Of a stretch of 64,000 bases of DNA, positions 26,433-60,130 are shown piece by piece. Position 1 is the first letter of the stretch. Every line of letters begins with the position of its first letter. The notes below the pieces were generated by a model, which was given only the letters and a program-made list of their open reading frames with translations, did no database searches and had not been told where the DNA came from. The stretch is from Eledone cirrhosa (Eukaryota): the NCBI GenBank assembly GCA_964016885.1, contig OZ024759.1:18414001-18478000 (forward strand). Direction: 5' to 3'. Both the position numbers and the translations under genes were made by a program.

Positions 26433-29400
26433 AAGGTGGACGTTAAACGAAGATGATGATTATCATGATATATATATATGTATATATGTGTGTGTGTACA
26501 GGGCCTGTGAGAGGTGGGTCCAGCTGGTACATTGTTCCGGTGCCCAAGAGCTAAGAAAGTCACATGCAACATCCATTTCGAGAATAATCTTTGCCTGCTT
26601 TGGGAGTCTTGTACCACCTTGCTAAATTTCTCTTGGAGGCTCTGTGTATGCATATATGCATGCGAAAATATATATATAAATGTATACTTTCTTTTAAACT
26701 AAAAAAAAAACCCTACAAATAGAAATACCGTTACCTCTTCTAAAAAACTAAACTAAGCCATCTCGACACTATATACATACTTTCTAAGAAATATAACTCA
26801 AATTTCTCTCTATAAACCTCATTCTGCAGATCTTTCTTTATTGAATACATTCTAAACCTTGTCAACAATAACAGCTATTCTAGAGACACAAAAATACGTT
26901 TTACTATCTTCTCTTTTTAGAGACATACATATAAAGCTATACACTTTCTACTAAGAAAAATATATAAACCTTCTTCTTTATACAGGAATATACCTTTCCT
27001 TTTTTCTTCAAACAAAACGAAACCTCTCTATACAGCTACATTTTTATTATCACTGATGCTGTCCAACTAATTTCTATTGCTGAGTGATTTGGAGCAACGT
27101 GAAATAAAGTGTCTTGTTCAAGAACACAACGCCCTCCATAATGTCAGAAAAAATGATTTAAACGTTAGTTTTGTTTAGGGTGTACATGTCCCATAGGATC
27201 TCCTACGGCCAACTAAGCTCTGGTCACCATAAGCGTAGAGGGCGAAAGAAGCAGTTTTAGGCATATACTTTACACAACATCTCCTACGGCCACCTAAAAC
27301 TCTTGTTAATGTCCCATAGTATCTCCCACGCTTGCATGGGTCGTCTTGCTTATATATGTGTGCTAAGAGTGCGAAAGGAACAGATTAAGGACATACTTCT
27401 CGTACAAGCTTCATATACATAATATCAAAGAAGCAGTTTTATAGCGTATCCGTCCTATGGCCAACTAAACGCTGGTCAGTGAGCGAAAGAAGCACTTCAT
27501 TGAAAACGTAATTTTAATTAAGATTTTTCAAATACATCTATATCATATAGATTCGTTTTCGACACTTTCAAAAACACACATTTCATATACATTTCTTTTC
27601 AACACTTACAAAAACACCCGTTTCATATAAAATTTTTGTTTGGCTTTTCAGAAAACACACATTTCATATAGAATTTTTTTCGGCACTTTCACAAACATTC
27701 TTAGTTTCTTTCTTTAGACACTTCATCTATATTCTTAGTTTCTTTCTTAAGAAACTTAATCTACAACAGGGTTTCCCAACCTTTTTTCAGCCAGCGCTCC
27801 CTTTGGAGGAAAACTTTTTTGTCAACGCCCCCCTATCAAATTAAATTTCACATAAGATACTGAATTCATTTTACATCAAATGGGTGTTTTGTTTTTATTT
27901 TTGGTGTTCCACTTTAGCAACACAAGTTACTCATGAATGAATGTGGTGCTAGGAATTCGCTTGGTGTCGCTAAAGTGGAAAAAAATACTTATATGCCGTA
28001 AAGCATATTGTCCGACGCTCTACAGACAATGCCAATACACAGCTGTGAAGGAATTTAATAATAAAACCACTTGGCTATCGTTTACCTTGTTGCGTGTAGG
28101 TCACTTAATCTGCCTTTGTCGTTCTTTCTCGACCAGATCCAGCTGGAAAAACTCTCCGCCTCCTCTGCTATTGTCTTTAGTACTTTGGTCCTGTTCCAGC
28201 CAGTTACTCAGAGATATTTCATGAGATTGTAGGCAGATATTTCCACCAACCCTCTCACTCCAGCCTGTGGGGTGAGAACTTTGACCTGGAAACCTACTTT
28301 GTAAAGAACTTTCTCTCCCCTGTATGTCTGTCCTTCTTGTAATCATAGCTGAAGTATTGATCAGTGTTAACAGGTCGATATCGATTAAATTTTCACCACG
28401 TGAGTTCTCAATCATTAGGAGAGAGTGACATCTTGGGTGTCATCATAACGTCCAATTCACCCATTTCCGGTGATCGGCCACTCCTTGATATGTTTGTGAT
28501 TGAGAGTAAAGTGACTCCCCACTAGACGGGACGCCAGTCCATCACATGGTTAAATCCCCATCTACTGCTGGTGCTCATTTTCAGCTGAGTATAACTGGGA
28601 GAAGGGGAAGACGACTCACCTAGAGGGACTAACCCCAGTGCACAAGCCAGGTAAACATACAGTAACGCACTCGGGTCGATTTAATTGACTTTCCCCTCCC
28701 CCAAAATGGTTGGCCTTGAGCCCAAAGCAGAAACAAGCAGGACCTTTCAACTGTACTAAATACATGACAACCACCCTAGTGTTGGTATCACTTAGTAAAC
28801 TCAGTAAAGGGGTTTTCGTAAAGGCATCCTTCGGGTCAAGAGGACTCTCCTACTGTATAAAACAGGACAACCTCATTATTGCTGGTGTCCTGATAAAAAT
28901 GCACTCAGTAATAGTGCTGTAGTTTAGATGGCGCTGCAGCATGGCCTGGCTGTTTAGATGGTGCTGCAGCATAGCCAGGTTTGTTAGTTAGTCGGTGATT
29001 GCCTTGAATCTCCAAAGTATGTGTAGAAGGGGGTGCGACAGCGTGTTGGCTCTGGGTATCCTTTGGGGAAAAGAACTTAATAAATTTGTTTGATTTATAT
29101 TAAAATCGAATAAAGCGTTTATATCATGTTTCATCTGTGTTTATATATATTCAAAATGTTTTCCTTTCTCATAATATTTCTCAGTATATTAGACCTTATA
29201 CTTCAGTTTTTGGGGCATACAATCAAGATTGCCCCGGGTATCTGTGATAGAGTGGCGTTCTGTCCAGATGAGTTCCTGTATTTTCAGCCGACTAACTGAC
29301 ACGGATAAGTAACGATCTAATGAGCCTCCGGATTTGAGACAGACTTTAATCTTGCAATCGACTGGCGTCCTATCCAGGTCCACAGTGCAGTTATTCTACA

Positions 29401-29574
29401 CACATATGTTTGGTAAGTCCGTAATTGAAGTTACAGGCGGTGTGAACGTATTTTTGCTCATAAAGCTCGCATATCTGATGAGATATTGATACAGAGCCGG
29501 ACTCCGGTCATTATGATTGTACTCTAAGATGATCGATATTGATATTGGAAGTGATATGCAGCAAGACTCTTTTT

Positions 29575-30122
29575 CTGTGATAAAAGAATGGGCCTGCTTT
29601 TTAACGTCCCTGATATACAGTGGAATCTGTCTTTCGATACGATCCACAGTTACATGTAATTAAAAAATGGGTCTGTCTTTTAACGTCCCTGATATACAGT
29701 ATAGTTTTGAAGCTGTCTCTCGAAACGGCCCACTGTCAAATCAAATCTAAGGTTGTGTTTTTCTTTTAACGTCCCTGATATAGAGTATATTTTGGTAGCT
29801 GTTTCTCGATACGAAGAGGTGTCACATCTGATATAAAGTGAGGTCTGTCTGTCCCTCCATACGGCCCTTTGTTACATCTAACATAATGTTGGGTCTGTCT
29901 GTCTCTCCATACGACCGACAATTACATCTAACTAATATAAGCGTGGGCCTGTCTTTTAACGTCCCTGATATACAGTATATTGTGGTAGCTGTCATACCAT
30001 ATAGCCCACAGTTAAATCTAAGGATGGGTCTGTCTTTTAACGCCCTCATATACAGTATATTGTGGTAGCTGCAACCCCACATGGCAGCTGTTACATTTAA
30101 GGATTGGTCCGTCTTTTAACGT
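29575..30122 (-). repeat. Diverged monomers of the 81-bp satellite
   Basis: gggtctgtcttttaacgtccctgatatacagtatattgtggtagctgtcataccatatagcccacag is the reverse complement of the 45850 unit; more monomers at 31935-32550, 36015-36270 and 42720-42965. Confidence 0.85.
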
Positions 30123-30230
30123 TAAGTTAATTCTAGTGCTCATTTCTTTTTTTGAGGTGTTGATCCATGAACCAAGATACCTAAAACCTTCAAATGTAAC
30201 GGATTTTGTATTGAGCAGACACTATATTAA

Positions 30231-30362
30231 CCCTTTAGCATTTACATTGCTCTATATATACTATTGTATTTTCATGGTTAAATTTTTTTCCTCCCATAGT
30301 ATGGAATCTATGAGAACAATACCTTAACATCAGTATGAGCAGCCGGTTTAAATGCTAAAGGA
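30231..30362. mobile_element. piggyBac-like MITE (short copy)
   Basis: TTAA-CCCTTTAGCATTTA ... TAAATGCTAAAGGA-TTAA. Confidence 0.7.
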
Positions 30363-31669
30363 TTAACATATATGTTACCATCTTAGTAAGTATATTTACT
30401 TACATATTAATTGTTCTGTATATATGTTCGCAATACTAGTAATTTCGAATTTAATATATATATAGAGTGAGGTAACACTCGGAATATATCGTGTTATCTC
30501 GCTTTCTTTCCGTTTCTATATTAAAAAAAAAAAAAAAAATGTTACCTCTAAGTATGACTAATTTACTTAGCAGAATTGCGGCGATGCGCGTAGCGGTTCC
30601 GACTTCGTCGTCTACCTATGTATGGCGTGACCATACTATGTGTCTGAAGTTCCAATCGTTACAAGGTCTTCGTGGCTTTTGCAGGGAGAAGGGGTAGAGG
30701 ACTCACCTGGAGGGGCTAACCCCAGTGCACAAGCCAGGTAAACATACAGTAATGCATTGGGGTCGATTTAATTGACTTTCCCTTGAGCCAAAGTAAAAAC
30801 AAGGAGGACCCTCCAACTGTACCAAATACATGACAACCACCCTGGTGTTGGTATCACTTAGTAAACTCAGTAAAGTGGTTTTCGTAAGGGCATCCCTCCA
30901 AATAAAGGGTCAGGAGGACACTCCTGCTGTATCAAAGATATGACAACCTCATTAGTGCTGGTGTCCTGATAAAAATGCATTCAGTAATAGCGCCTGGCTG
31001 TTTAGTCGCTTTCGTATGATATACTATTTACACCTACCTAGTTGTTCTTTTGTCTACGTATTCTTAATGAAATACACATCCACTTGTTTCAATATATAGC
31101 GAATATAACAACATTTAACATATTTTTTATTAATAAATATGTATCTAGTATAGTTTAAAAATTGTTTCTACTTCTTCCTGGGGTAGATCCTTTGTCTTTA
31201 TTAAATCCTTCTGCCGACTATTTCTCCCCATCACTGTGTGGTTGTCTTCCTCTCCCTCTCCAGATCTAACTCATTCCCAATTAGCAATCGAACGTGGTGG
31301 TTTCGATTATTCGAAGTTGCCTACCTCTTGCGATCTTTCCGAGGTACACACAATAAGTCCAGCTGTTCACCATCTATGTTTTAAGCCCTTTTTCTCCCAT
31401 TTGATTTTACCGTGCGAAACTTCAGTATTTCTTCGCATAGTGGTTAATGTCATAAGTTCGATTCCTTGATCGTGTTGTGTTCTTGAGCAAAACACTTCAT
31501 TTCACATGGCTCCAGTATACTTAGCTGAAAATGAGATAGACTGGCGTTCTGTCCAGGTTCCTGTATTTTCAGCCGACTAACTGACTCGGATAAGCACCGG
31601 TCTAATGAGCCTCCGGGTTTGAGACAGACCTTGCAATCGACTGGCGTGTCATTCCAATGTTTGTGAGCA

Positions 31670-31870
31670 TTCTCCATACTGATTGAGCCGTACTGCTCAC
31701 CTTTGCCAGTCTTGCTGATTTCCCTGTCAATCTTGGCATCCGATGTGAAGATGCATCCCAGGTAGCTGATATGATGGTCTGTTTTCAGTTCAGTCTCGCC
31801 AATGGGGAGGGTGGTACTCTTCCTGAGGTGCAGGCTGGTGGAATACCTCCATCTTCTTTAAGCTTACTTA
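31670..31870 (-). mobile_element. RTE LINE fragment
   Basis: Translates IGETELK...SYLGCIFTSDAKIDREI, the post-RT YLG motif of RTE elements. Confidence 0.6.
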
Positions 31871-33363
31871 CAGTCCAGAGAGCTGGGCAGCCTATGCGAA
31901 ACTGGGAGTGATACGCATCAAGATTCTTTCTCTGTGATAACAGAATGGGCCTGTCTTTTAACGTCCCTGATATACAGTAGTAGCTGTCTACCCCCCCCCC
32001 CCACACACACACACAGACACACAGACACACACGGCAGCTGTTATATCAAAGGATGGGTCTGTCTTTTAACTGATATACAGTATATTGTGGAAGCTGTCCC
32101 TCCATACGGCCTACAGTTACATCTAAGGATGGGCCTGTCTTTTGACGTCCCTTATATAGAGTATATTATGGCAACAGTACATCCATGCGGCCAATAGTTA
32201 CATCTAACGTTGTTTGTCCTTCCATGTTGCTTCTAATATAAGGCTGGGTATGTTTTTTAACGTCCCTTACATAGAGTTTATTGTGGTAGCTGTCCCCCAC
32301 TCGGCAGCTGTTACATCTAAGGTTGTGTTTGTCTTTTAACGTCCCTGATATAGAGTATATTTAGGTAGCTGACACTCGATACGGCCCACTGTCAAATCTA
32401 ATATAAGGTTGGGCCTGTCTTTTAACAGTATATTGTGGTAGCCGTCCCTCCATATGGAGAGGTGTCACATCTGATATAAGGTGAGGTCTGCTGTCTCTCC
32501 ATACGGCCCACATTTGCAGCTTATAAAAGGTTGATCTGTCTTTTAACATCCCAAGAACTGGGGTCATATGTCAATCGCACACCGTCACTCTTAAACCTGG
32601 AATCCATCAAGGTATGTATTAGTCACATTTGTATCGATTTTTTAAAATTATTCGTTGATAAAATGATATATGTAAACGGCATAAATGGAAGTAATCCAGG
32701 GGTGAATATATTTTTCATTTCAAGATTGTTAATGCGTTGCTGGTCATGTGGTGATATATGTGTATTGTTACGGGGTGCACTTATGGTTGTCGATCGAATA
32801 CCGATGGTGACTGTCTTATTCTTCAATTGTGGATCATTTGGTGACTGGTAACTGTACAGGCAGTACATATTTCAGTGGAAGTGTTGTATGTCACACCTCA
32901 GTTTCCTTCCCTCTCGGCTTCTAAGACTTTCTCCGTGCCCAACGCTTGGTTAGAGGGCCAAAGGCTGTGCATAATAAGGTCGCCAAAAAAATGGTTAAAA
33001 GAGACATGTCTAAGCTGTATAATCTTCTATGGCTATCGCTTGACTGTAAACATGTTTAAACTCTCTCGCTGGAGGGTAAACAAAGCGGTTTAAAGATGTC
33101 TAACTTCCTTCTCCATCGTAGATCTTTCAGTCATCAAAGGGTCAGTATCGAACTTCGATAAACCACCACAATTAAACTCCCTAAACACTCCGTTGGCAGA
33201 CATCGAATACCCCATCTTCACAGCACCACCAATGCGTTAATAATTGTCTTATGAAAAAAATATTTAAATCCAAAATCACTTCCCTTTGTTCCGTTTGCAT
33301 ATATTAATTTATTTTTCAACAAAATCTTTCAAAAGTACCCATAAGTACCACTATTTAACTCAC

Positions 33364-33456
33364 TAGAATTGTGGCCTTCGCGGTGGCGTGCGACTGCTAA
33401 CTGGACCGGCGCATCGATGCAAGGCCCGACCCTGACCACCGTGAAGAACTTTTTTT
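33364..33456 (+). ncRNA. Candidate Pol III structured RNA, module Y (short form)
   Basis: Terminal stem cttcgcggtgg/ccaccgtgaag followed by T7. Confidence 0.3.
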
Positions 33457-34937
33457 CGAAATTTCTCTTAATATATTTTTGAAGTTTCTAGATTCTTAAA
33501 ACCCTTGAAGGTTATTAACATTCTTGGAAGACAGTTAGATTCGAACCTTTCTAACTTAGAATCTAACCCTTGATACTTCTTACCTAGATTCGAACCTTTG
33601 ATACTTTCTTTACATACTTCAAGGTTCTTATTACATTCTTACCCTTGATACTTCTTACATTTTTGACTTACTTAGATTCGAACCTTTGATACTTCAAGGT
33701 TCGTTCTTGGAAGACAGTTTGATTCGAACCTTCGATGCTTTCTTTACATACTTAAAGGTTCTTGATACTTGGAACCTTGATGGGTACTCCATTCTTGGAC
33801 GACTGTTGGATTCGAACCCTTAATGACACTTTTGGACGAATGTTACATTGGTAATACTATCTATACATTTTTTTTTTTTTTTGTCAAAATAAACGGAACA
33901 CAATTCGTATGTAATATGTAAACTTTATTCATTTTTGTCAAATAAACTGAACACGATTCGTATAAGATGTTCGACATTTTTTACGGCAACACAGCATATG
34001 ACCTCGAAGGCTGGACATCTGTAAAAGAAAATAAAAAGAACATTAAATTTCATAAAATTCTTCAAATTTTGTTCTTTTATTATATATACATTTAAAAAGA
34101 GGAAACCTTTTCCTACATCAAAGTTACGTAGATTAAAACCTAGGGTGTAATATTCACCCTGACCTAAGACGACAGATCTCAAAAGGTTATTCATAATAAC
34201 CAGAATTTACAATACACGAGGATATCATGAAGGGAACTAGAAATAATATTGTTGGATGGAAACTAAGAGTGTTGTAAATGAAGTATCAAAGAATGTAGCA
34301 AGAAGTATCTCATCCAACTGTCTTCCAAGAATGTAAAGAAAGTATCTAAGGTTCTAATCCAAGGTTTAAGGGGACACGTGTGCGAGAAATCAAGATTCAT
34401 TGGGTGAATATTTCTTCGAAAGCATGTATACAGTGTCGAGATGGCTTAATTTAGTTTCTTAGAAGAGGTAACACTATTTGTGTGTGTATTTTGTTTTAAA
34501 TTTCAAAGAAAGCCACAGAAAATAAAATATGAACACAATAACCAAAGTGTGTATCTAATGAAATGTATGTTTTCTGAAGAGTAGAAAAAAAATCTATATG
34601 AAACTAGTGATTTTGAAATGTCGAGAAAAATTCTATATGAAACGTATGTTTTCTGAAAAGTCGAAAAAGGAAATCTACATTTAATTGGTGTTTTGTGAAA
34701 GGTGTATATCTAATAGAATGTATGTATATAGAAAACAATATCCAAAATGTGAGCGTTATTGACATAAAGTGTATATATTAGTCCTAGTATAGAGCAAAGC
34801 AAACATTACATACCTCTCTACATGAAAGTAATATCCAAAATGGTTCTCTTCCAAAGAACCGGAAGTTACTTGAAAAAAGTCACTTCAAAAAAAGAAGAGT
34901 TTAAAAAAGGGGAGATAATTCTAATAAAATTTTGAGC

Positions 34938-35118
34938 AAAAATCGATTGTTCGCGAGGCCCGGGACGCAGGTCAGACAAGTAGCCAGCCTGCGAAATAGT
35001 CCCAGCTGCATAAACCACGAAGACCTCGTAACGATTCGAACTTCAGACACATAGAATGGTCACGCCATACATAGGTAGACGACAAAGTTAGAACCGCTAC
35101 CCGCAAAGCTGCAATTCT
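34938..35118 (-). ncRNA. Candidate Pol III RNA, module X
   Basis: A-box-like GTAGCGG, B box GTTCGAATC (35033-35041) and T5 end on the minus strand. Confidence 0.3.
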
Positions 35119-37024
35119 TATAAGTAAAATTAGTATACTTATAGGTAAAATTTTAGTATTTTGTACATTTATGCAGAACAATTATTATGGAGATAAATAT
35201 ATGTATTTCTCTCTATAAACCTCATTCTGTAGATCTTTCCTTAGAGACATACATATAAAACTATATACTCTCAACTAAGAAAAATATATAAACCTTCTTC
35301 TCTATACCTTTCCTTTTTTCTTCTAATAAACCTCTATACACAGCTACATTTTATTATCTTCTCTATTTCTTTCACACGTGTCCTCTTCTATGTAGAGAGA
35401 AACCTTTGTGAGAATCGAACTCACGATTGTAAAGTCCGACAACTTTACATAAATACTTTGCGCATTGATGTCCAATTATATCGGCGCATGCGTACTTTAG
35501 TGAAAATTAAATGGCCGCATGAAGAACTACATGTTTTACAACGTGAATTAAAAAAACGTTAAAAACTTGGATTTTACTAATTTTACGGAGGTAAACTAAA
35601 GCTTTATTTTATGTTGATCAGTTTTATTGAAACATTTTCTGTTTATTTCCCTCCATAATGTCAGAAATAATTATTTAAACATTAGTTTTGTTTAGCCACA
35701 TCTTACATTCTAATGTAATACAACACCCCCTCATACATATTTCTTGCTCATACGAAATAGTGTATTTTGTTAATTATTATGTAAGCTGGTAAATAATATA
35801 TTTCTATTTCCCTTCATCATATCCTCGTATTTTGTAATCAGAGGTTAACTGTTGATTCGTGTTAACTAGATCGATATCGCTTTAACTTTTAACCTACAAT
35901 CATTTATATTCTTAGTTTCTTTCGTTAGAAACTTTATTTATATTTTTAGTTTCTTATTTTCCCACCAACAATATTATGTAGACAATAGTTTTGTTTAAGC
36001 TACTGCCACATTTCTACTGTTACATCTAAGGTTGTGTTTGTCTTTTAACGTCCCTGATATTAGGTATATTAGTATATTTAGGTAGCTGCCCCTCGATACG
36101 GCCCACTGTCAAATCTAATATAAGGTTGGGCCTGTCTTTTAACAGTATATTGTGATAGCGATTCCTCCATACTGAGAGGTGTCACATCTGATATAAGGTG
36201 AGGTCTGCTGTCCCTCCATACGGCCCACATTTGCAGCTTATAAAAGGTTGACCTGTCTTTTAACATCCCAAGAACATGTGTCAATCGCACACCCTTAAAC
36301 CTGGAATCTATCAAGGTACGTATTAGTCACATCGATTTTTTTAATTATTCGTTGATAAAATGATATATGTAAACGGCATAAATGGAAGTAATCCAGGTGT
36401 GAATATATTTTTCATTTCAAAATTGTTAATGCGTTGCTGGTCATGTGGTGATATATGTGTATTGTTACGGGTGCACTTATGGTTGTCGATCGAAAACCGA
36501 TGGTGACTGTCTTGTTCTTCAATTGTGGATCATTTGGTGATTGTACATATGTCAGTCTATACCTCCTCCCCCTCGAAAGCTCAGTGCCCTGTCTGGCTTC
36601 TAAAACTTTCGCTGTGGCCAACGCTTGGTTAGAGGGCCAAAGGCATGTACATAATGTCGACAAAAAAAAGAAAACGGTTAAAAGAGACATGTCTAAGCTG
36701 TATAATCTTCTATGAGTATCGCTTGACTGTAAACATGTTTAAACCCTCTCGCGGGAGGGTAAACAAAGCGGTTTAAAGACATTCTAACTTCCTTCTCCAT
36801 CGTAGACATCGAACTTAGATAAACCACCACAATTAAACTCCCTAAACACTCCGTTGGCAGACATCGAAAACCCCATCTTCATAGCACCACCAATGCGTTA
36901 ATAATTGTCTTATGAAAAAAATATTTAAATCCAAAATTACTTCCCTTTGTTCCGTTTGCATATATTAATTTTTTTTTCAACAAAATCTTTCAAAAGTACG
37001 TATAAGTACCACTATCTAACTCAG

Positions 37025-37188
37025 TAGAATTGCGGCCTTCGCGGTGGCGTGCGAACTGCGTCTCGGACTACCAGTCTCCCTGGCTGGCGTTCTATTCGTG
37101 GTGGCGTGCGACTGCATCGGCCTGGGACTATTCTGGGCCGGCACATAGATGCAAGGCCCGTCCCTGACCACCGTGAAGCCTTTTTTTT
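37025..37188 (+). ncRNA. Candidate Pol III structured RNA, module Y (long form)
   Basis: Upstream TATAAG at 37001, 11-bp terminal stem (37037-37047 with 37168-37178), T8 at 37181-37188. Confidence 0.35.
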
Positions 37189-37365
37189 GAAATTTTTTTA
37201 ATATGCAAATTAGATAAAAAAAAAAAGAAGAAAAAAATCTTTGACATAGTAAATATATATATATATATTTACTATGTCGACATAGTATATATATATATAT
37301 GTCGACATATATATATATATATAGTGAGACTTGTCGAAGATTTAATCTAATATGCTAATTTCGAA

Positions 37366-37630
37366 AATCTAATATGCTAATTTGGAAATTATATTAGAAG
37401 AAATTTCTTTTAATATAATTTCTAATTTGCATATCTAATATGCTAATTTGGAAATTATATTAGAAGAAATTTATTTTAATACAATTTCTAATTTGCATAT
37501 CTAATATGCTAATTTGGAAATTATATTAGAAGAAATTTCTTTTAATACAATTTCTAATTTGCATATCTAATATGGAAATTATATTAGAAGAAATTTCTTT
37601 TAATATAATTTCTAATTTGCATATTAGAAA
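37366..37630. repeat. Tandem ~66-bp imperfect palindromes (~4 copies)
   Basis: atatgctaatttggaaattatattagaagaaatttcttttaatataatttctaatttgcatat is nearly self-complementary about GAAATTTC. Confidence 0.85.
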
Positions 37631-37699
37631 TTTTTTCTAATATGATATTTTTGAAGTTTCTAGATTCTTAAAACCCTTGAAGGTTATCAACACTCTTTG

Positions 37700-38350
37700 A
37701 AGACAGTTAGATTCGAACCTTTTTAACCAAACTTGGATTCTTAGATTCTAACCCTTGATACTTCTTACTACATTCTTGACTGAGATTCGAACCTTTGATA
37801 CTTTCTTTACATGGTTCAAGGTTCTTATTTCATTCTAACCCTTGATATTTCTTACTACATTCTTGACTTAGATTCGAACCTTTGATACTTTCTTTACATA
37901 GTTCAAAGTTCTTATTACATTCTAACCCTTGATACTTCTTACTACATTCTTGACTGAGATTCGAACCTTTGATACTTTCTTTACATGGTTCAAATTTCAT
38001 TCTAACCCTTGATACTTCTTACTACATTCTTGACTTAGATTCGAACCTTTGATACTTTCTTTACATGGTTCAAGGTTCTTATTACATTCTTACCCTTGAT
38101 ACTTCTTACCACATTTTTGACTTACTTAGATTCGAACCTTTGATACTTTCTTTACATACTTCAAGGTTCTTATTACATTCTTACCCTTGATACTTCTTAC
38201 CACATTTTTGACTTACTTAAATTCGAACCTTTGATACTTCAAGGTTCATTCTTGGAAGACAGTTTGATTCGAACCTTCGATGCTTTCTTTACATACTTAA
38301 AGGTTCTTGATGGTGACTCCATTCTTGGACGACTGTTGGATTCGAACCCT
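37700..38350. repeat. ~88-bp tandem repeat carrying GGTTCGAATC (minus strand) in each unit
   Basis: About 9 (g)attcgaacc motifs; a shorter version with 5 motifs lies at 33535-33820. Confidence 0.8.
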
Positions 38351-39496
38351 TAATGACACTTTTGGACGACTGTTACATTGGTAATACTGTCTATACATTT
38401 TTTTTTTTTGTCAAAATAAACTGAACACAATTCGTATATAATATGTAAACTTTATTCATTTTTGTCAAATAAACTGAACACGATTCGTATAAGATGTTCG
38501 ACATTTTTTACGGCAACACAGCATATGACCTCGAAGGCTGGACATCTGTAAAAGGAAATAAAAAGAACATTAAACTTTATAAAATTCTTCCAATTTTGTT
38601 CTTTTATTATATATACATTTAAAAAGAGGAAACCTTTTCCTACATCAAAGTTACGTAGATTAAAACCTAGGGTATAATATTCACCCTGACCTAAGACGAC
38701 AGATCTCAAAAGGTTATTAGTAATAACCAGAATTTACAATAGACGAAGGGAACTAGAAATAATATTGTTGGATGGAAACTAAGAGTGTTGAAAAAAGAAA
38801 CGAAAATTGTAAATGAAGTTTCTAACGAAAGAAACTAAGAGTATCAAAGAATGTAGCAAGAAGTATCTCATCCAACTGTCTTCCAAGAATGTAAAGAAAG
38901 TATCTAAGGTTCTAATCCAAGGTTTAAGGGGACACGTGTGCGAGAAATCAAGATTCATTGGGTGAATATTTCTTCGAAAGCATGTATACAGTGTCGAGAT
39001 GGCTTAATTTAGTTTCTTAGAAGAGGTAACACTATTTGTGTGTGTATTTTGTTTTAAATTTCAAAGAAAGCCACAGAAAATAAAATATGAACACAATAAC
39101 CAAAGTGTGTATCTAATGAAATGTATGTTTTCTGAAGAGTAGAAAAAAAATCTATATGAAACTAGTGATTTTGAAATGTCGAGAAAAATTCTATATGAAA
39201 CGTATGTTTTCTGAAAAGTCGAAAAAGGAAATCTACATGAAATTGGTGTTTTGTGAAAGGTGTATATCTAATAGAATGTATGTATATAGAAAACAATATC
39301 CAAAATGTGAGCGTTATTGACATGAAGTGTATATATTAGTCCTAGTATAGAGCAAAGCAAACATTACATACCTCTCTACATGAAAGTAATATCCAAAATG
39401 GTTCTCTTCCAAAGAACCGGAAGTTACTTGAAAAAAAGTCACTTCAAAAAAAGAAGAGTTTAAAAAAGGGGAAATAATTCTAATAAAATTTTAAGC

Positions 39497-39678
39497 AAAA
39501 ATCGATTGTTCGCGAGGTCCGGGACAAGTAGCCAGCCTGCGAGATAGTCCCAGCTGCATAAGCCACGAAGACCTCATAGCGATTCGAACTTCAGACACAT
39601 AGAATGGTCACGCCATACATAAGTAGACGACAAAGTCGGAACCGCTACGCGCATCACCATGCAAAGCCGCAATTCTAC
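39497..39678 (-). ncRNA. Candidate Pol III RNA, module X
   Basis: Upstream TATAAGTA, start TAGAATTGCGGC shared with module Y, A-box-like GCGTAGCGG, B box GTTCGAATC (39581-39589), T5 end. Confidence 0.35.
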
Positions 39679-39769
39679 TAAGTAGAATTAGTATACTTAT
39701 AGGTAAAATTTTATAAAGTTTAACTTTCTTTTTATTGACAACGTCTGTATATATATATATTTATTGACA

Positions 39770-41060
39770 ACGTCTTTTATTTCTTTTACAGATGTCCAAT
39801 CATCGAGGTCATATGCTGTGTTGTTTGCCGTAACAAGTAGGAATGTCGTAGTTTTTGTTAATAAAGAAAGTTTACATCTTATATACGAATTGTGTTCAGT
39901 TTATTTTGCAAAAAATGAATAAAGAAATCAAGAGTCTACAAGAAACTGAGTAAGACGCGCTATAAAGAACGTAAGTGTATATGAAGTTTCTAAATAAAGA
40001 AACTAAGAGGTAGATAAAGTTTCTTGAAAGAAACTAAGAATGATGAAGTTACTAAATCAAGAAACTAAGAGGTAGATAAAGTTTCTTGAAAGAAACTGAG
40101 AATGATGAAGTTACTAAATAAAGAAACTAAGAATGTTTTTGAAATTATCGAAAAAAAAAAATCTATGTAATGAGTCCCCCTTTTTTTTTTTTTTTTTTTT
40201 ATTAAAGGGAGGTAACTCTGTAATATTTTTGAGAGAACACCTTCGTCACCGTCGTTACCACCGTCGGCACCTTCGTAACCGTCGTCACCATTACCGCCGC
40301 CACCTGGTGGCGGAGGTAAAGATACCGACGACGACGAAGTTGCACCGTCGTCTTCGTCGGTACCTTTGCCGCCGCCACCTGGTGGCGGAGGTGAAGACAC
40401 CGACGAAGACGACGGTGCAACTTCGTCGTCGTCGGTACCTTTGCCGCCGCCACCTGGTGGCGGAGGTGAAGACACCGACGAAGACGACGGTGCAACTTCG
40501 TCGTCGTCGGTATCTTTACCTCCGCCACCAGGTGGCGGCGGTAATGGTGACGACGGTTACGAAGGTGCCGACGGTGGTAACGACGGTGACGAAGGTGTTC
40601 TCTCAAAAATATTACAGAGTTACCTCCCTTTAATAAAAAAAAAATAAAAAAAGGGGGTACTCATTACATAGATTTTTTTTTTTCGATAATTTCAAAAACA
40701 TTCTTAGTTTCTTTATTTAGAAACTTTATCATTCTTAGTTTCTTTCAAGAAACTTTATCTACCTCTTAGTTTCTTGATTTAGTAACTTCATCATTCTTAG
40801 TTTCTTTCAAGAAACTTTATCTACCTCTTAGTTTCTCTATTTAGAAACTTCATATACACTTACGTTCTTTATAGCGCGTCTTACTCAGTTTCTTGTAGAC
40901 TCTTGATTTCTTTATTCATTTTTTGCAAAATAAACTGAACACAATTCGTATATAAGATGTAAACTTTCTTTATTAACAAAAACTACGACATTCCTACTTG
41001 TTACGGCAAACAACACAGCATATGACCTCGATGATTGGACATCTGTAAAAGAAATAAAAG
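39770..41060. repeat. Near-perfect long palindrome with GC-rich multi-hairpin centre
   Basis: Arms ~39770-40361 and 40474-41060 are reverse complements apart from homopolymer lengths and a few substitutions. Confidence 0.92.
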
Positions 41061-44000
41061 TCATTTACAGACGTTGTCAATAAAAAGAATGTTAAACTTT
41101 ATAAAATTCATCCAATTTTGTCTTTTATTATAAAAATCATTTAAATAGAGGAAACTAAGAATCTATATGAAGTTTCTTAAAGAAAGGAAATAAGAAGGTA
41201 GATGAAGTGTATAAAGAAAGAAACTAGGAATGTACATAAAATGCATAAAGAAGATTGTAAACGGTTACTTGTTACGTAAATTAAAAGTTAAAGCGGTATC
41301 GATCTGGTTAATAATATCGATCTGATTACGATGTCTAAAAAAAAAAACAACTAAATTTCTTTCTTTAGAAACTTCATCTACATTCTTAGTTGTTTTCAAT
41401 GACGAAAAAAGAAACTAAGAAAGTAAATGAAGTGTTGAAAGGGAACAAAGAAAGTAAATGAAGTGTTGAAAGGGAACAAAGAAAGTAAATAAAGTTTCGT
41501 GAGGAGAAACTAAGAATGTAAAGGGTTAAAGTGATATCGATCTAGTTAACACTGACCGACAGTTAATCTTTGAATACGATCATGATATCTAAATTAATCA
41601 ACAGTTAATCTTTGATTACGATCATGATATCTAAAAAAAAAAAATGGGTACAAAACTTAAGTTTTATGGCCAAAACGTGACGGGTGTAATATTCATCCTG
41701 ACCAAAGACAACAGATCTCAAAAGATTCTGGTTAATATTAATAACCAGAATATATAGCAACCAACATCATGTGTGACAGGAGCAAGTCCTCCAAAACAAA
41801 TTTACAACAAAACACGAGGATATCATGAAGGGAATTAGAAATATATTATTTAAATAATAAAGAAAATAAGCTAAATTCTATTTCATATGACCTAGAAATG
41901 TGGCAGTAGCTTAAACAAAACTATCGTCTACATAATATTGTTGGTGGGAAAATAAGAAACTGAAAATGTAAATAAAGTTTCTAACGAAAGAAACTAAGAA
42001 TATAAATGATTGTAGGTTAAAAGTTAAAGCGATATCGATCTAGTTAACACGGATCAACAGTTCACCTCTTTTTTCATAAGACAATTATTAACGCATTGGT
42101 GGTGCTATGAAGATGGGGTTTTCGATGTCTGCCAACGGAGTGTTTAGGGAGTTTAATTGTGGTGGTTTATCTAAGTTCGATGTCTACGATGGAGAAGGAA
42201 GTTAGACATGTCTTTAAACCGCTTTGTTTACCCTCCCGCGAGAGGGTTTAAACATGTTTACAGTCAAGCGATACTCATAGAAGATTATACAGCTTAGACA
42301 TGTCTCTTTTAACCGTTTTCTTTTTTTTGTCGACATTATGTACATGCCTTTGGCCCTCTAACCAAGCGTTGGCCACAGCGAAAGTCTTAGAAGCCAGACA
42401 GGGCACTGAGCTTTCGAGGGGGAGGAGGTATAGACTGACATATGCACAATCACCAAATGATCCACAATTGAAGAACAAGACAGTCACCATCGGTTTTCGA
42501 TTGACAACCATAAGTGCACCCCGTAACAATACACATATATCACCACATGACCAGCAACGCATTAACAATTTTGAAATGAAAAATATATTCACACCTGGAT
42601 TACTTCCATTTATGCCGTTTACATATATCATTTTATCAACGAATAATTAAAAAAATCGATGTTACTAATACGTACCTTGATGGATTCCAGGTTTAAGGGT
42701 GTGCGATTGACACATGTTCTTGGGATGTTAAAAGACAGGTCAACCTTTTATAAGCTGCAAATGTGGGCCGTATGGAGGGACAGCAGACCTCACCTTATAT
42801 CAGATGTGACACCTCTCAGTATGGAGGGATCGCTATCACAATATACTGTTAAAAGACAAGCCCAACCTTATATTAGATTTGACAGTGGGCCGTATCGAGG
42901 GGCAGCTACCTAAATATACTCAATATCAGGTACGTTAAAAGACAAACACAACCTTAGATGTAACAGTAGAAATGTGGCAGTAGCTTAAACAAAACTATTG
43001 TCTACATAATATTGTTGGTGGGAAAATAAGAAACTAAAAATGTAAATAAAGTTTCTAACGAAAGAAACTAAGAATATAAATGATTGTAGGTTAAAAGTTA
43101 AAGCGATATCGATGTAGTTATAGAAATATATTAACCTCTGATTACAAAATACGAGGATATCATGAAGGGAAATAGAAATATATTATTTACCAGCTTACAT
43201 AATAATTAACAAAATACACTATTTCGTATGAGCAAGAAATATGTATGAGGGGGGTGTTGTATTACATTAGAATGTAAGATGTGGCTAAACAAAACTAATG
43301 TTTAAATAATTATTTCTGACATTATGGAGGGAAATAAACAGAAAATGTTTCAATAAAACTGATCAACATAAAATAAAGCTTTAGTTTACCTCCGTAAAAT
43401 TAGTAAAATCCAAGTTTTTAACGTTTTTTTAATTCACGTTGTAAAACATGTAGTTCTTCATGCGGCCATTTAATTTTCACTAAAGTACGCATGCGCCGAA
43501 ATAATTGGACATCGATGCGCAAAGTATTTATGTAAAGTTGTCGGACTTTACAATCGTGAGTTCGATTCTCACAAAGGTTTCTCTCTACACAGAAGAGGAC
43601 ACGTGTGAAAGATATAGAGAAGATAATAAAATGTAGCTGTGTATAGAGGTTTATTAGAAGAAAAAAGGAAAGGTATAGAGAAGAAGGTTTATATATTTTT
43701 CTTAGTTGAGAGTATATAGTTTTATATGTATGTCTCTAAAGAGAGATCTACAGAGTGAGGTTTATAGAGAGAAATTTGAGTTAGAAAGTATGTATATAGT
43801 GTCGAGATGGTTTAGTTTAGTTTCTTAGAAGGGCTAACACTATTTGTATGTGTATTATGTTTTAATTTCAAAGAAAGCATGTTGAGTGAGTGACGATGTG
43901 CCAGAAAGCCACATGAACACAAGATCCAAAGTGTGAGAGTTGTTGACATAAAGTATGTATCTAATAACATGTATGTGTATAGGGCAAAGAAAACATTACA

Positions 44001-45021
44001 TACCTCTATAGTTTGGATTTGTGACAGGTAAAAGTACTACGGAGGCCATCTACCTTTTGGGGCAACTGGTAAACCTCTACTTGATTTCTTTATTCATTTT
44101 TGTCAAAATAAACTGAACATGATTTGTATATAAAATGTAACCTTTTTTATTTACAGAAACTTCGCCGTTCCCACTTGTTACGACAAATAACACAGCATAT
44201 GACCTTGAAGGCTGGACATCTGTAAAAGGAAATGAATGTCATTTACATACGTTATCAATAAAAAGAATATTAAACTGTATTAAATTCTTTCTATTTCGTC
44301 TTTTATTATATATAGATTTAAATAGAGGAAACAAGAAAACCCTTCCTACATCGAAGGAGGTAACTAAACTAAGAATGTAAATGAAGTGTTGAAAACGAAC
44401 AAAGAAAGTAAATGAAGTTTCGTAAGAAGAATCTAAATGGTTCTATGCTACCTAGGTTAAAATGATATCGATCTAGTTAATACTGACCAACAGTTAATCT
44501 TTGATTATGATGATGATGATGATGATATCTAAAAAAAAAAAATTTCGTTCAAAACTAGACAGGTATAATATTGACTATGATCAAAGATGACAGATCCAAA
44601 AGATTCTGGTTAATATTAAGATGTGCCAGAAAGCCACATAAAAAGCCCCTTCACATAAACACAATATCCAAAATGCATGTGAGGTTTATTGACATAAAAT
44701 GTATGTGTATGGTTGTTCGCGAGGTCCGGGAACGCAGGCCAGCAAGTAGCCATCCTGCAAACAGTCCCAGCTGCATAAGCCACGAAGACCTCGTAACGAT
44801 TCGAACTTCAGACACATAGAATGGTCACGCCATGCATAAGTAGACGACGAAGTCCGAACCGCTGCTTTTAGGTAAAACTTTATTCATTAAAATATATATA
44901 TATATAGAAATGGAGAGGAAAGTAACACGTCTCAAAATAGATTTCGTGTGTTATCTCACATTCCGTTTCTATATTTAAATTAATTTAGAATCTACTAGTA
45001 TTTTGTACATATATGCAGAAC

Positions 45022-45213
45022 AAGGCGGTGGATTGGCAGTATCGATAGAGGGTCGGACGCCATGCTTTGCAGCACAGTTAGTCCCTTTACGGACTGAGTT
45101 CAAATCCCGCCGAGGTGAACTTTGCCTTTCATCCTTACGGAGGTCGATAAAATAAAGTACCAGTAATACACTGGAGTAATTGCTGGCCTTGTGCCAAATG
45201 TAGAAACAATTAT
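45022..45213 (+). mobile_element. Full-length SINE family A
   Basis: aaggcggtggattggcagtatcg head, B box gagttcaaatcc, conserved core and tail. Confidence 0.8.
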
Positions 45214-45699
45214 TATGGAGATAAATATATATACACATATGTGTGGGTGTATATACGTTAATAATTGTCTTACGTATAAGAAAATTATTAACGCATTGGT
45301 GGTGTTGTGAAGATGGGGTTGTTGTACATATATACAGAACAATTGTTATGGAGATAAATATATGTGTGGGTGTATATGTATATATGCCGAGGAGAGAGAA
45401 GAAGAGGGAGCACGTCAGCTCTGATAAAGAAGATCAGAAGTGTGGAGAGAGCGGTTGACAGGTCTAGGTGTAAGGAGAGCTGGATGATCATAGGGAGGAA
45501 GAGAAGGGGTTCGAGTCAGATCCAGGGAACAGGACCCGAGGATAGGAAGAGGAAATGGCTGGACCATTTTAGGACCCTCCGCAGTTGTATGATCAACTGG
45601 ATATGGAGACACGACCCTTCACCAGAGAGGAGCTTCCGAGACCCCAAAAGAAGATCAAAGAGGGCTAGGCTCATGGAGTGGCATCAGAAGTGTGATTTT

Positions 45700-45818
45700 G
45701 GTTAGAGCATTGTGCTTGCAATCGAAAGGTTGTGAGTTGGATTCTCGGACCGGGTGATGTCTTGTGTCCTTGAGCAAGACACTTTATTTCACGTTGCTCT
45801 AGTTTACTCAGCTGTAGA
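45700..45818 (+). mobile_element. SINE family B head abutting the 81-bp satellite
   Basis: Reverse complement of 1780-1905. Confidence 0.7.
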
Positions 45819-45849
45819 AGGGGGAGGGGGCAGCTACGACATATATACT

Positions 45850-48800
45850 ATATATTAAAAGACAGACCCATCCTCAGATGTAACTCTGGGCTATATGGTA
45901 TGACAGCTACCACAATATACTGTATATAAAGGATGTTAAAAGACAGACCCTTCCTCAGATGTAACTGTGGGCTATATGGTATGACAGCTACCACAATATA
46001 CTGTATATAAAGTATATTAAAAGACAGACCCACTCTCAGATGTAACTGTGGGCTATATGGTATGACAGCTACCACAATATACTGTATATAAAGGATGTTA
46101 AAAGACAGACCCATCCTCAGATGTAACTGTGGGCTATATGGTATGACAGCTACCACAATATACTGTATATAAAGGATGTTAAAAGACAGACCTATCCTCA
46201 GATGTAACTGTGGGCTATATGGTATGACAGCTACCACAATATACTGTATATAAAGGATGTTAAAAGACAGACCCATCCTCAGATGTAACTGTGGGCTATA
46301 TGGTATGACAGCAACCACAATATACTGTATATAAAGGATGTTAAAAGACAGACCCATCCTCAGATGTAACTGTGGGCTATATGGTATGACAGCTACCACA
46401 ATATACTGTATATAAAGGATGTTAAAAGACAGACCTATCCTCAGATGTAACTGTGGGCTATATGGTATGACAGCTACCACAATATACTGTATATAAAGGA
46501 TGTTAAAAGACAGACCCACCCTCAGATGTAACTGTGGGCTATATGGTATGACAGCTACCACAGATGTAACTATGGGCTATATGGTATGACAGCTACCACA
46601 ATATACTGTATATAAAGGATGTTAAAAGACAGACCCACCCTCAGATGTAACTGTGGGCTATATGGTATGACAGCTACCACAATATACTGTATATAAAGGA
46701 TGTTAAAAGACAGACCCACCCTCAGATGTAACTGTGGGCTATATGGTATGACAGCAACCACAATATACTGTATATAAAGAATGTTAAAAGACAGATCCAT
46801 CCTCAGATGTAACTGTGGGCTATATGGTATGACAGCTACCACAATATACTGTATATAAAGGATGTTAAAAGACAGACCCACCCTCAGATGTAACTGTGGG
46901 CTATATGGTATGACAGCTACCACAGATGTAACTGTGGGCTATATGGTATGACAGCTACCACAATATACTGTATATAAAGGATGTTAAAAGACAGACCCAT
47001 CCTCAGATGTAACTGTGGGCTATATGGTATGACAGCTACCACAGATGTAACTGTGGGCTATATGGTATGACAGCTACCACAATATACTGTATATAAAGGA
47101 TGTTAAAAGACAGACCCTTCCTCAGATGTAACTGTGGGCTATATGGTATGACAGCAACCACAATATACTGTATATAAAGTATGTTAAAAGACAGACCCAG
47201 CCTCAGATGTAACTGTGGGCTATATGGTATGACAGCTACCACAATATACTGTATATAAAGGACGTTAAAAGACAGACCCACCCTCAGATGTAACTGTGGG
47301 CTATATGGTATGACAGCTACCACAATATACTGTATATAAAGGATGTTAAAAGACAGACCCATCCTCAGATGTAACTGTGGGCTATATGGTATGACAGCTA
47401 CCACAGATGTAACTGTGGGCTATATGGTATGACAGCTACCACAATATACTGTATATAAAGGATGTTAAAAGACAGACCCTTCCTCAGATGTAACTGTGGG
47501 CTATATGGTATGACAGCTACCACAATATACTGTATATAAAGGATGTTAAAGGACAGACCCATCCTCAGATGTAACTGTGGGCTATATGGTATGACAGCTA
47601 CCACAATATACTGTATATAAAGGATGTTAAAAGACAGACCCATCCTCAGATGTAACTGTGGGCTATATGGTATGACAGCAACCACAATATACTGTATATA
47701 AAGTATGTTAAAAGACAGACCCAGCCTCAGATGTAACTGTGGGCTATATGGTATGACAGCTACCACAATATACTGTATATAAAGGATGTTAAAAGACAGA
47801 CCCACCCTCAGATGTAACTGTGGGCTATATGGTATGACAGCTACCACAGATGTAACTGTGGGCTATATGGTATGACAGCTACCACAATATACTGTATATA
47901 AAGGATGTTAAAAGACAGACCCATCCTCAGATGTAACTGTGGGCTATATGGTATGACAGCTACCACAATATACTGTATATAAAGGATGTTAAAAGACAGA
48001 CCCATACTCAGATGTAACTGTGGGCTATATGGTATGACAGCTACCACAATATACTGTATATAAAGGATGTTAAAAGACAGACCCATCCTCAGATGTAACT
48101 GTGGGCTATATGGTATGACAGCAACCACAATATACTGTATATAAAGTATGTTAAAAGACAGACCCATCCTCAGATGTAACTGTGGGCTATATGGTATGAC
48201 AGCTACCACAATATACTGTATATAAAGGATGTTAAAAGACAGACCCATCCTCAGATGTAACTGTGGGCTATATGGTATGACAGCAACCACAATATACTGT
48301 ATATAAAGTATGTTAAAAGACAGACCCAGCCTCAGATGTAACTGTGGGCTATATGGTATGACAGCTACCACAATATACTGTATATAAAGGATGTTAAAAG
48401 ACAGACCCACCCTCAGATGTAACTGTGGGCTATATGGTATGACAGCTACCACAGATGTAACTGTGAGCTATATGGTATGACAGCTACCACAATATACTGT
48501 ATATAAAGGATGTTAAAAGACAGACCCATCCTCAGATGTAACTGTGGGCTATATGGTATGACAGCTACCACAGATGTAACTGTGGGCTATATGGTATGAC
48601 AGCTACCACAATATACTGTATATAAAGGATGTTAAAAGACAGACCCATACTCAGATGTAACTGGGGGCTATATGGTATGACAGCTACCACAATATACTGT
48701 ATATAAAGGATGTTAAAAGACAGACCCATACTCAGATGTAACTGTAGGCTATATGGTATGACAGCTACCACAATATACTGTATATAAAGGATGTTAAAAG

Positions 48801-48858
48801 ACAGACCCAGCCTCAGATGTAACTGTGGGCTATATGGTATGACAGATACCACAATATA
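45850..48858. repeat. 81-bp satellite (~34 units) with seven interspersed 38-bp half units
   Basis: Unit gttaaaagacagacccatcctcagatgtaactgtgggctatatggtatgacagctaccacaatatactgtatataaaggat. Confidence 0.95.
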
Positions 48859-49035
48859 CCATCAGGGTTGCAAGTGTTATATCAGAGTTTTCCTCCTCCT
48901 AGAATTCTGCCTTGACAAAGGCTAGGGGGGGGGGTCATCTTTCCCGGTGATTTTGGATGGCCATTGACTCTTAAGAGCTCCTTTGCCCTATGACAGGTTT
49001 TGTTTTTAGTCCTGCAGGATGTCCAAAGTCACCCT
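48858..49035. repeat. Dispersed repeat, probably a LINE 3' region
   Basis: Inverted copy at 53705-53880; related copies at ~49670-49880 and ~51070-51175. Confidence 0.6.
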
Positions 49036-57854: not shown

Positions 57855-59915
57855 GCTACTTCTCCGAATTGAGAGATCACAGCTCCGATACTATGGACAT
57901 GTGGTTAGAACGTCTCAGGTAAGAATCACTGGAGAGTCACTCCAGGTAGAGCCACTACTTCTCCGAATTGAGAGATCACAGCTCCGATACTATGGACATG
58001 TGGTTAGAATGTCTCAGCTAAGAATCACTGGAGAGTCACTCCAGGTAGAGCCACTACTTCTCCGAATTGAGAGATCACAGCTCCGATACTATGGGCATGG
58101 GGTTAGAATGTCTCAGGTAAGAATCACTGGAGAGTCACTCCAGGTAGAGCCATTACTTCTCCGAATTGAGAGATCACAGCTCCGATACTATGGGCATGGG
58201 GTTAGAATGTCTCAGGTAAGAATCACTGGAGAGTCACTCCAGGTAGAGCCATTACTTCTCCGAATTGAGAGATCACAGCTCCGATACTATGAGCATGTGG
58301 TTAGAACGTCTCAGGTAAGAATCACTGGAGAGTCACTCCAGGTAGAGCCATTACTTCTCCGAATTGAGAGATCACAGCTCCGATACTATGAGCATGTAGT
58401 TAGAACGTCTCAGGTAAGAATCACTGGAGAGTCACTCCAGGTAGAGCCATTACTTCTCCGAATTGAGAGATCACAGCTCCGATACTATGAGCATGTAGTT
58501 AGAACGTCTCAGGTAAGAATCACTGGAGAGTCACTCCAGGTAGAGCCATTACTTCTCCGAATTGAGAGATCACAGCTCCGATACTATGAGCATGTAGTTA
58601 GAACGTCTCAGGTAAGAATCACTGGAGAGTCACTCCAGGTAGAGCCACTACTTCTCCGAATTGAGAGATCACAGCTCCGATACTATGGACATGTAGTTAG
58701 AACGTCTCAGGTAAGAATCACTGGAGAGTCACTCCAGGTAGAGCCATTACTTCTCCGAATTGAGAGATCACAGCTCCGATACTATGGGCATGGGGTTAGA
58801 ATGTCTCAGGTAAGAATCACTGGAGAGTCACTCCAGGTAGAGCCACTACTTCTCCGAATCGAGAGATCACAGCTCCGATACTATGAGCATGTGGTTAGAA
58901 TGTCTCAGGTAAGAATCACTGGAGAGTCACTCCAGGTAGAGCCACTACTTCTCCGAATTGAGAGATCACAGCTCCGATACTATGAGCATGTGGTTAGAAC
59001 GTCTCAGGTAAGAATCACTGGAGAGTCACTCCAGGTAGAGCCACTACTTCTCCGAATTGAGAGATCACAGCTCCGATACTATGAGCATGTGGTTAGAACG
59101 TCTCAGGTAAGAATCACTGGAGAGTCACTCCAGGTAGAGCCACTACTTCTCCGAATTGAGAGATCACAGCTCCGATACTATGAGCATGTGGTTAGAACGT
59201 CTCAGGTAAGAATCACTGGAGAGTCACTCCAGGTAGAGCCACTACTTCTCCGAATTGAGAGATCACAGCTCCGATACTATGAGCATGTGGTTAGAACGTC
59301 TCAGGTAAGAATCACTGGAGAGTCACTCCAGGTAGAGCCACTACTTCTCCGAATTGAGAGATCACAGCTCCGATACTATGAGCATGTGGTTAGAACGTCT
59401 CAGGTAAGAATCACTGGAGAGTCACTCCAGGTAGAGCCATTACTTCTCCGAATTGAGAGATCACAGCTCCGATACTATGGGCATGTGGTTAGAACGTCTC
59501 AGGTAAGAATCACTGGAGAGTCACTCCAGGTAGAGCCACTACTTCTCCGAATTGAGAGATCACAGCTCCGATACTATGGGCATGTGGTTAGAACGTCTCA
59601 GGTAAGAATCACTGGAGAGTCACTCCAGGTAGAGCCATTACTTCTCCGAATTGAGAGATCACAGCTCCGATACTATGGGCATGTGGTTAGAACGTCTCAG
59701 GTAAGAATCACTGGAGAGTCACTCCAGGTAGAGCCATTACTTCTCCGAATTGAGAGATCACAGCTCCGATACTATGGGCATGTGGTTAGAACGTCTCAGG
59801 TAAGAATCACTGGAGAGTCACTCCAGGTAGAGCCACTACTTCTCCGAATTGAGAGATCACACACAGCTCCGATACTATGGGCATGGGGTTAGAATGTCTC
59901 GGGTAAGAATCACTG
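57855..59915 (+). repeat. 96-bp in-frame tandem array (~21 copies) derived from an RTE LINE coding segment
   Basis: Each unit encodes ESLQVEPLLLRIERSQLRYYGHVVRTSQVRITG. Confidence 0.95.
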
Positions 59916-60130
59916 GACAGGTTTTACAGAGGAAACCAACAGGCAGGAGACCCAGGGATAGACCCGGAGCAAAATGGTTGGATAACATCCATGAGCTTGG
60001 TTGGTCTCGCTTGAGTATCCAGCTGGATTAGTTGGAGATAGTTGCTTCTGACAGGACTTGCTGGAAGGAGTGTTTGAGGACTCTGCCTCCACGACCTTTT
60101 CAGGAATAAGAGGGCGAAGAAGAAGTAGAA
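59865..60130 (+). mobile_element. RTE (Expander-like) LINE 3' end continuing from the array
   Basis: QVLQRKPTGRRPRDRPGAKWLDNI...LPPRP, then a gaagaagaag-type tail. Confidence 0.8.

Follow-up and report, generated by a model that had tools for sequence, protein, structure and literature searches.

The 64,000-bp window analysed here, a stretch of the 3.0-Gb genome of the animal Eledone cirrhosa (C20:18,414,001–18,478,000), contained six copies of two related modules, Y and X. We read the X/Y family as small structured genes, probably derived from tRNA-Arg(TCG), which RNA polymerase III (Pol III) is predicted to transcribe into RNAs of 150–190 nt, and assign this reading a probability of about 0.58. 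The first-pass annotation had also taken the modules for Pol III-type structured RNAs, and was supported in this by covariation, by the B box of X, by a TATA-like box at -31 and by runs of at least four T (T4+), whereas the A box proved weak.

Family size was obtained by merging DNA searches, in which the best 40 of 87 candidates for Y and the best 40 of 286 for X were scored, with pattern searches (50 and 96 exact matches). This gave at least 176 modules (127 X and 49 Y) in ~127 clusters, a lower bound from which a distant single-copy progenitor could be missing. By alignment, X and Y are paralogous over their whole length and represent two diverged classes within a single family: homology ran along the full length, with eight of nine X–Y alignments beating all 200 shuffles and one tying with the best, and a model built on Y found X copies down to an E value of 1e-6. 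Only 2 of the 176 modules lay on the six largest chromosomes (C1–C6), which hold at least 1.7 Gb, over half of the genome. Subfamilies were confined to single chromosomes, so that copies are not independent, and many copies carried deletions. Convergent Y and X had been proposed as a two-RNA cassette; as a fixed unit this was not supported, because X and Y are paralogues and because there were also X–X pairs in convergent orientation, pairs in divergent orientation and Y copies that stood alone. A convergent X was listed within 15 kb for 13 of 49 Y, while 27 of the 127 X faced another X, 19 faced a Y and 11 had a divergent partner only (partners are undercounted in both tallies). Pairs were spaced 1.8 to 13 kb apart, and one Y on C25 had no X within 30 kb.

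The fold predicted from the window Y alone (-69.4 kcal/mol, z -2.8) was a three-way junction made of the terminal stem P1, a long P2 carrying the B box, and P3. X shared this fold; the window X alone folded weakly (z -0.9). Over 22 full-length or near-full-length Y copies, truncated copies being left out, 94% of cells paired and 5 of 49 pairs changed on both sides. On the Y tree, four double changes fell on the same branch against 0.41–0.46 expected (1–2 of 2000 re-paired nulls), pairing was kept in 56% of changes against 41% in the null (35–64 of 2000 re-pairings), and one further pair passed between C-G and U-A via U-G five times. The compensatory changes date from after the Y family had begun to diverge, and the covariation across genomic copies by which the RNAs were to be judged was present in Y and weaker in X. 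In X, 20–22 of the 22 P2 pairs were kept in 21 of 22 copies. The strand running from leader to T run folded better in all 57 of 57 module copies, a bias that the flanks did not have; after correction for composition by shuffling it held in all 14 Y but in only 9 of the 14 X.

The B box of X fitted GWTCRANNC in 38 of 40 copies and, of 176 nine-base windows, was one of the 7 with the highest conservation; it alternated between GTTCG and GATCG, mainly the T/A position varying. Of 40 X copies, 33 had TATAAG at -31, and a T4+ run followed the stem in 45 of the 49 copies shown (18 of 19 Y, 27 of 30 X). The box consensus and positions were taken from an excerpt of PMC10137851, which places a TATA-like box at -31/-24 in 4.5S RNA genes. 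In host U6 genes a comparable TATA box was located at -30, with an octamer-like motif near -77. At three loci the U6 genes shared ATGC(A/T)AAT(T/G)AG ~77 nt upstream, an unusually proximal octamer-like element, and ~30 of them formed a tandem array at C19:31.8 Mb.

Further elements of the same kind occupied the spacer downstream of Y. Nine of the ten ATGCWAAT sites in the window fell in a single cluster; the window total was at chance level, and the clustering stood out. Across loci, strict B boxes occurred at 3.6 per kb downstream of Y versus 0 in 97 kb of background, and octamers at 2.2 per kb versus 0.12 per kb, counts that tandem amplification inflates. Spacer B boxes and octamers were found only in a young Y subfamily, where the B box was intact in several differing flanking contexts.

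Sequence comparison makes a tRNA-Arg(TCG) origin of the family fairly likely. Against 22 X copies, six variants of host tRNA-Arg(TCG) reached mean z values of 2.8–3.8, at the top of 29 host tRNA sequences, and this tRNA was colinear with the first 110 nt of X in the order 5′ half, insertion at the anticodon loop, 3′ half. ARAGORN found no tRNA in the window or at five module loci. Rfam gave no gathering-level match in the window and, at relaxed thresholds, only chance microRNA-like matches outside the modules. There was no match to RF00006 (vault RNA); the resemblance to vault, VA and EBER RNAs to which the first-pass annotation pointed is one of architecture only. Vault ancestry was rejected, as the host's vault genes form a separate array on C3 and the X/Y sense strand scored no better than shuffles, and 7SL ancestry likewise, as the host signal recognition particle (SRP) RNA is encoded elsewhere and similarity to it was no better than shuffles. 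An ordinary insertion of a short interspersed element (SINE) was also rejected, given the lack of target duplications and of a tail and the conservation of flanks on both sides. Comparison with host SINE heads gave pairwise hints in a few of 40, and the profile test was essentially negative (3 of 22 scores marginal, 0 of 47 in reverse). No description of the family was found in the literature, Repbase, Dfam, SINEBase and supplements lying outside the search, so that the family may have an entry there as an unclassified repeat; none of the papers searched contained any of five DNA or RNA words taken from the modules.

Tandem arrays of host genes were encountered in the course of these comparisons: at least 11 canonical vault RNA genes of two variants at C3:221.18–221.25 Mb, ~20 SRP genes at C12:42.1 Mb and ~40 tRNA-Arg(TCG) genes at C6:63.12–63.17 Mb. 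Two groups of tRNA-like sequences combined one body with several anticodons (Ala/Val/Asp/Thr and Thr/Ile) and are probably tRNA-derived repeats.

Several observations weigh against the reading of X and Y as tRNA-derived Pol III genes. As to origin, the tRNA-Arg lead was picked post hoc from a narrow panel with few tRNA types, two tRNA-Thr sequences came close behind (z 2.4–2.7), and Y compared with tRNA-Arg(TCG) scored mostly under 2. The promoter of Y is poor: only 14 of 29 copies had a consensus B box, which is absent from the Y of the window, its position was no more conserved than average, and TATAAG was absent from 22 of 29 (present in 7), most reading CATAAG. The A box, expected ~11 nt from the start, was matched mostly at 8–9 of 11 positions, a level near chance for GC-rich DNA. 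Flanks were about as conserved as the module body, and the sequence AGTAGAA within the leader could pair with the T run, blurring the proposed ends. In X, P1 decayed in many copies and covariation was marginal (22 copies; 3 double changes versus 0.7–0.85, 56–90 of 1500). Finally, the excess of G-U over A-C changes was not above the null, so that the data do not distinguish a fold of RNA from one of single-stranded DNA.

No RNA run was listed as containing the modules, a blank that speaks neither for nor against transcription. Contigs of two runs from one study, of a kind not on record, covered 30 of 30 bins of window positions 34750–37245, both modules and flanks, as genomic family copies would give.

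If the modules are Pol III genes, TFIIIC would bind the internal B box and TFIIIB the TATA-like box at -31, with Pol III starting at the G of GCGGC and stopping at the T run. Local and inverted duplication of the carrier block would produce convergent Y–X and X–X pairs and many decaying copies. For the young Y subfamily, with its weak internal promoter, the adjacent B-box array and octamer cluster may recruit Pol III factors and could keep the block open. At a guess, the most likely role of the RNA would be to engage RNA-binding proteins as a stable, structured decoy, a role that has been put forward for other Pol III RNAs restricted to single lineages.

Only the Y at 37032 and the X at 39670 were full length among the six window copies, and both were damaged, Y in its B box and X in its stems (7 of 16 P3 pairs and 7 of 10 terminal-stem pairs kept). 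The 11-bp terminal stem of Y with one G-U pair, followed by T8, was present as first described. The description of the modules as GC islands also stood (65% in Y versus 28% in the spacer), but the leaders, called near-identical, matched at 27 of 36 ungapped positions. For X, the B box and T5 were borne out and the A-box-like match was weak. The short Y at 33364 did keep its stem and T run; this needs no selection, because the whole P2 arm was lost by deletion across the direct repeat GTGGCGTGCGA (at 37044 and 37101 in the full-length copy). A second pair at 33364/35118 exists, yet it is not independent evidence of pairing because it arose when the whole block was duplicated locally (33579–35155 versus 38121–39713, 92%). 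The additional X copies reported at 30570 and 44712 were found, both incomplete.

Table 1. Features of the X/Y modules and their surroundings, in window coordinates.
Feature	Position	Strand	Details
Y leader	37001..37036	+	TATA-like TATAAGTA at -31 from G at 37032 (predicted start)
Module Y	37032..37188	+	P1 37037-37047/37168-37178; P2 37048-37110; P3 37122-37166; T8 37181-37188
Y B-box position	37089..37097	+	mutated here (GTTCTATTC); GTTCGATTC in 14/29 Y copies
Module X	39497..39670	-	Y paralogue, partly decayed; B box 39581-39589; T5 39497-39501
X leader	39666..39701	-	TATA-like box at 39701-39694
Short Y copy	33340..33458	+	leader, P1 and T7 retained; P2 and B box lost by deletion
Second X copy with leader	34939..35143	-	11 nt of 5′ stem strand deleted
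X copy	30543..30684	+	3′ end cut; B box mutated
X copy	44713..44863	-	without leader and 5′ end; B box 44798-44806
Octamer-like cluster	37203..37622		9 octamer-like sites (ATGCWAAT); a tandem, palindromic repeat of 66 bp holds 8
B-box array	37710..38347	-	8 consensus B boxes (GGTTCGAATC) and one variant, mostly in an 87-bp tandem repeat
B boxes of duplicated spacer	33538..33817	-	five consensus B boxes
Carrier block	26680..48860 (limits approximate)		non-coding, rearranged mosaic common to other loci; 81-bp satellite at end
Palindrome	39707..41108		1.4 kb, 94%; abuts X leader

The genome has plentiful microsatellites, and its chromosomes comprise a few that are very large and many that are small. 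The carrier block lacked the usual long microsatellites and was a mosaic of duplicated and inverted pieces. No Pfam match was obtained for 17 open reading frames (ORFs) of the block, and a signal-peptide-like ORF at 42300–42650 was intact only in the C20 copies, stop codons and frameshifts interrupting it elsewhere. Carriers across loci were non-coding, palindrome-forming blocks of 5–40 kb, in which ~250 nt upstream, including a long AT-rich palindrome before the leader, and ~150 nt downstream were common to most copies. Beyond these flanks lay variable mosaics with captured pieces of SINEs and long interspersed elements (LINEs) and no common end. The C20 copies were colinear over >20 kb, and those on C12 and C23 formed ~15-kb palindromes with 95–99% identity. 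Long frames in the blocks examined were host LINE fragments or unconserved. These features point to spread of the family by DNA-level, often inverted, duplication, and the pattern matched the spread of snaR and 4.5SH by DNA duplication. Inverted duplication would also give the convergent orientation, and carriage in palindrome-forming blocks probably explains the convergent pairs.

Other repeats were seen in and around the blocks. At the centre of the 1.4-kb palindrome (40207–40630) lay nested, GC-rich palindromes with a 75-bp unit. The 81-bp satellite (45831–48859) had higher-order periods, its degenerate units recurred inside the carrier block, and it exceeded 20 kb in another C20 copy of the block. 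Deep Y copies had a near-perfect AT-rich hairpin of 250 nt directly 5′ of the leader, X was preceded by a shorter homologue of it, and the motif TTAYCTCCC was common to the hairpins of both classes and to the downstream flank. In one X copy, an inverted copy of its own P2 region replaced the P3 arm, a sign of template switching. Elsewhere in the window, a 285-amino-acid open frame (3759–4616) resembled a host exon and had no Pfam match above the cut-off, and an in-frame tandem repeat (57856–59917; 99 bp, 21 copies, 98%) gave a 627-amino-acid frame that by eye resembled a LINE reverse-transcriptase fragment.

Clusters of consensus B boxes outside any gene suggest another possibility, that the block acts as DNA, as a TFIIIC landing pad or chromatin boundary, and that the modules yield little or no stable RNA. 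Its inverted-repeat architecture and weak A box agree with this, as do the IR-L/IR-R elements of S. pombe, where five B boxes are bound by TFIIIC without Pol III (excerpt of PMC7474672). The compensatory changes, the strand-specific folding and the T run after the stem would, however, be left unexplained, and the array lies only beside the young Y subfamily; we regard such a role as unlikely.

It is similarly improbable that an old tRNA-derived SINE head or RNA gene was captured by a non-autonomous foldback or Helitron-like element, with the copies as passengers and the fold either a relic or a device of single-stranded DNA replication. The captured host SINE and LINE fragments, the lack of fixed ends, the long AT-rich palindromes upstream of both classes and the many deleted copies would all suit such capture, as would the weak pairwise colinearity with a common host SINE head and the abundance of Helitrons in the genome (Rep matches were drawn from the best 150 of 3704 candidates). 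Yet compensatory changes occurred within Y after divergence began, the SINE profile test was essentially negative, and neither Helitron-type termini nor coding remnants were found in the blocks examined. As a separate observation, very similar Helitron Rep matches recurred on one strand with ~100-kb spacing at C20:3.5–5.2 Mb and C27:13–15.5 Mb, suggesting giant tandem duplications.

More speculatively, the blocks could be a selfish, protein-free palindromic replicon confined to the small chromosomes. Such a replicon would carry tRNA-derived genes, arrays of B boxes and clusters of octamers with which to draw in the host's Pol III machinery, and would thereby evade silencing and multiply by way of hairpin intermediates; it would also make VA/EBER-like decoys against double-stranded RNA sensing or editing. 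We consider this a long shot. A derivation from a DNA virus or Polinton-like replicon, whose non-coding remnants would hold two VA/EBER-type RNAs beside an origin composed of tandem repeats and palindromes, is very unlikely. Two paralogous structured units of 150–190 nt beside tandem repeats, octamer sites and dyad symmetry recall such a replicon, and giant palindromes fit hairpin-ended replication, but the blocks examined (part of the copies) yielded no ORF of a virus or transposase, and no Polinton polymerase was found near the modules. The sole protein-primed polymerase match was on C2, where no module is listed; both leader matches in viral contigs failed the RNA model, and metagenomes gave 0 matches to the leader pattern. 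That the shared leaders are terminal inverted repeats (TIRs) of a 1.8–2.7-kb DNA transposon, as the first-pass annotation had allowed, is hardly credible: leaders face inward in many pairs, but homology continued for hundreds of bases past them on both sides, no direct repeat flanked either window pair, and neither the spacing nor the divergent pairs noted above fit. TIR ends and SINE-type insertion are both ruled out because flanks are shared on both sides and there is no common end.

If transcribed, the family would be a lineage-specific set of Pol III RNAs in an invertebrate, with well over 100 copies in two structural classes, and would be analogous to 4.5S, snaR or VA RNAs; if not, the repeat is unclassified and curious but otherwise ordinary. 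That the six largest chromosomes almost lack the family offers a marker for asking why small chromosomes differ, and with B-box arrays beside the genes it can be tested directly whether TFIIIC serves repeats for their own protection or spread.

Among known systems, the spacer resembled the S. pombe IR-L/IR-R and extra-TFIIIC sites in its B-box clusters within inverted repeats (excerpt of PMC7474672), and differed in that the array stands beside gene-like modules in a multi-copy repeat and that only the motifs are seen here. With tRNA-derived SINEs the family shares a tRNA-like head with a B box, and unlike them it has no tail, no target duplications and flanks conserved on both sides, which marks its spread as other than retrotransposition. 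The octopus SINE OR2 is of tRNA-Arg origin and is set beside X/Y by description only. OR2 is named in an excerpt of PMC4758252. X/Y differ from VA RNAs and EBERs in being chromosomal and multi-copy, with no Rfam match and no viral genes nearby. Like X/Y, VA RNAs and EBERs come as two paralogous units of 150–190 nt with a terminal stem and an internal B box. VA RNAs and EBER1/2 are type 2 Pol III genes (excerpt of PMC10137851). Vault RNA (RF00006; excerpt of PMC8824774) has the internal boxes, the stem joining the ends and the T run, whereas X/Y have no Rfam match and the extra arm P3. The primate snaR genes, whose RNAs are structured and made by Pol III, have a SINE-like ancestry and multiplied chiefly through segmental duplication, features that X/Y would share; they derive from Alu/7SL and their transcript is proven (excerpt of PMC3045588), and X/Y have no 7SL similarity and many more copies. 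The rodent 4.5SI and 4.5SH genes offer a parallel as lineage-specific members of the type 2 class of Pol III genes that have a T run and, at -31/-24, a TATA-like box, 4.5SI being tRNA-related and 4.5SH occurring in hundreds of copies, each in a 4–5 kb repeat; they are shorter than X/Y, have proven transcripts and, for 4.5SH, lie in tandem repeats (excerpt of PMC10137851), whereas X/Y have dispersed palindromic blocks, B-box and octamer arrays and a poor A box. By analogy, the X/Y family would work most like the 4.5SH/4.5SI and snaR genes.

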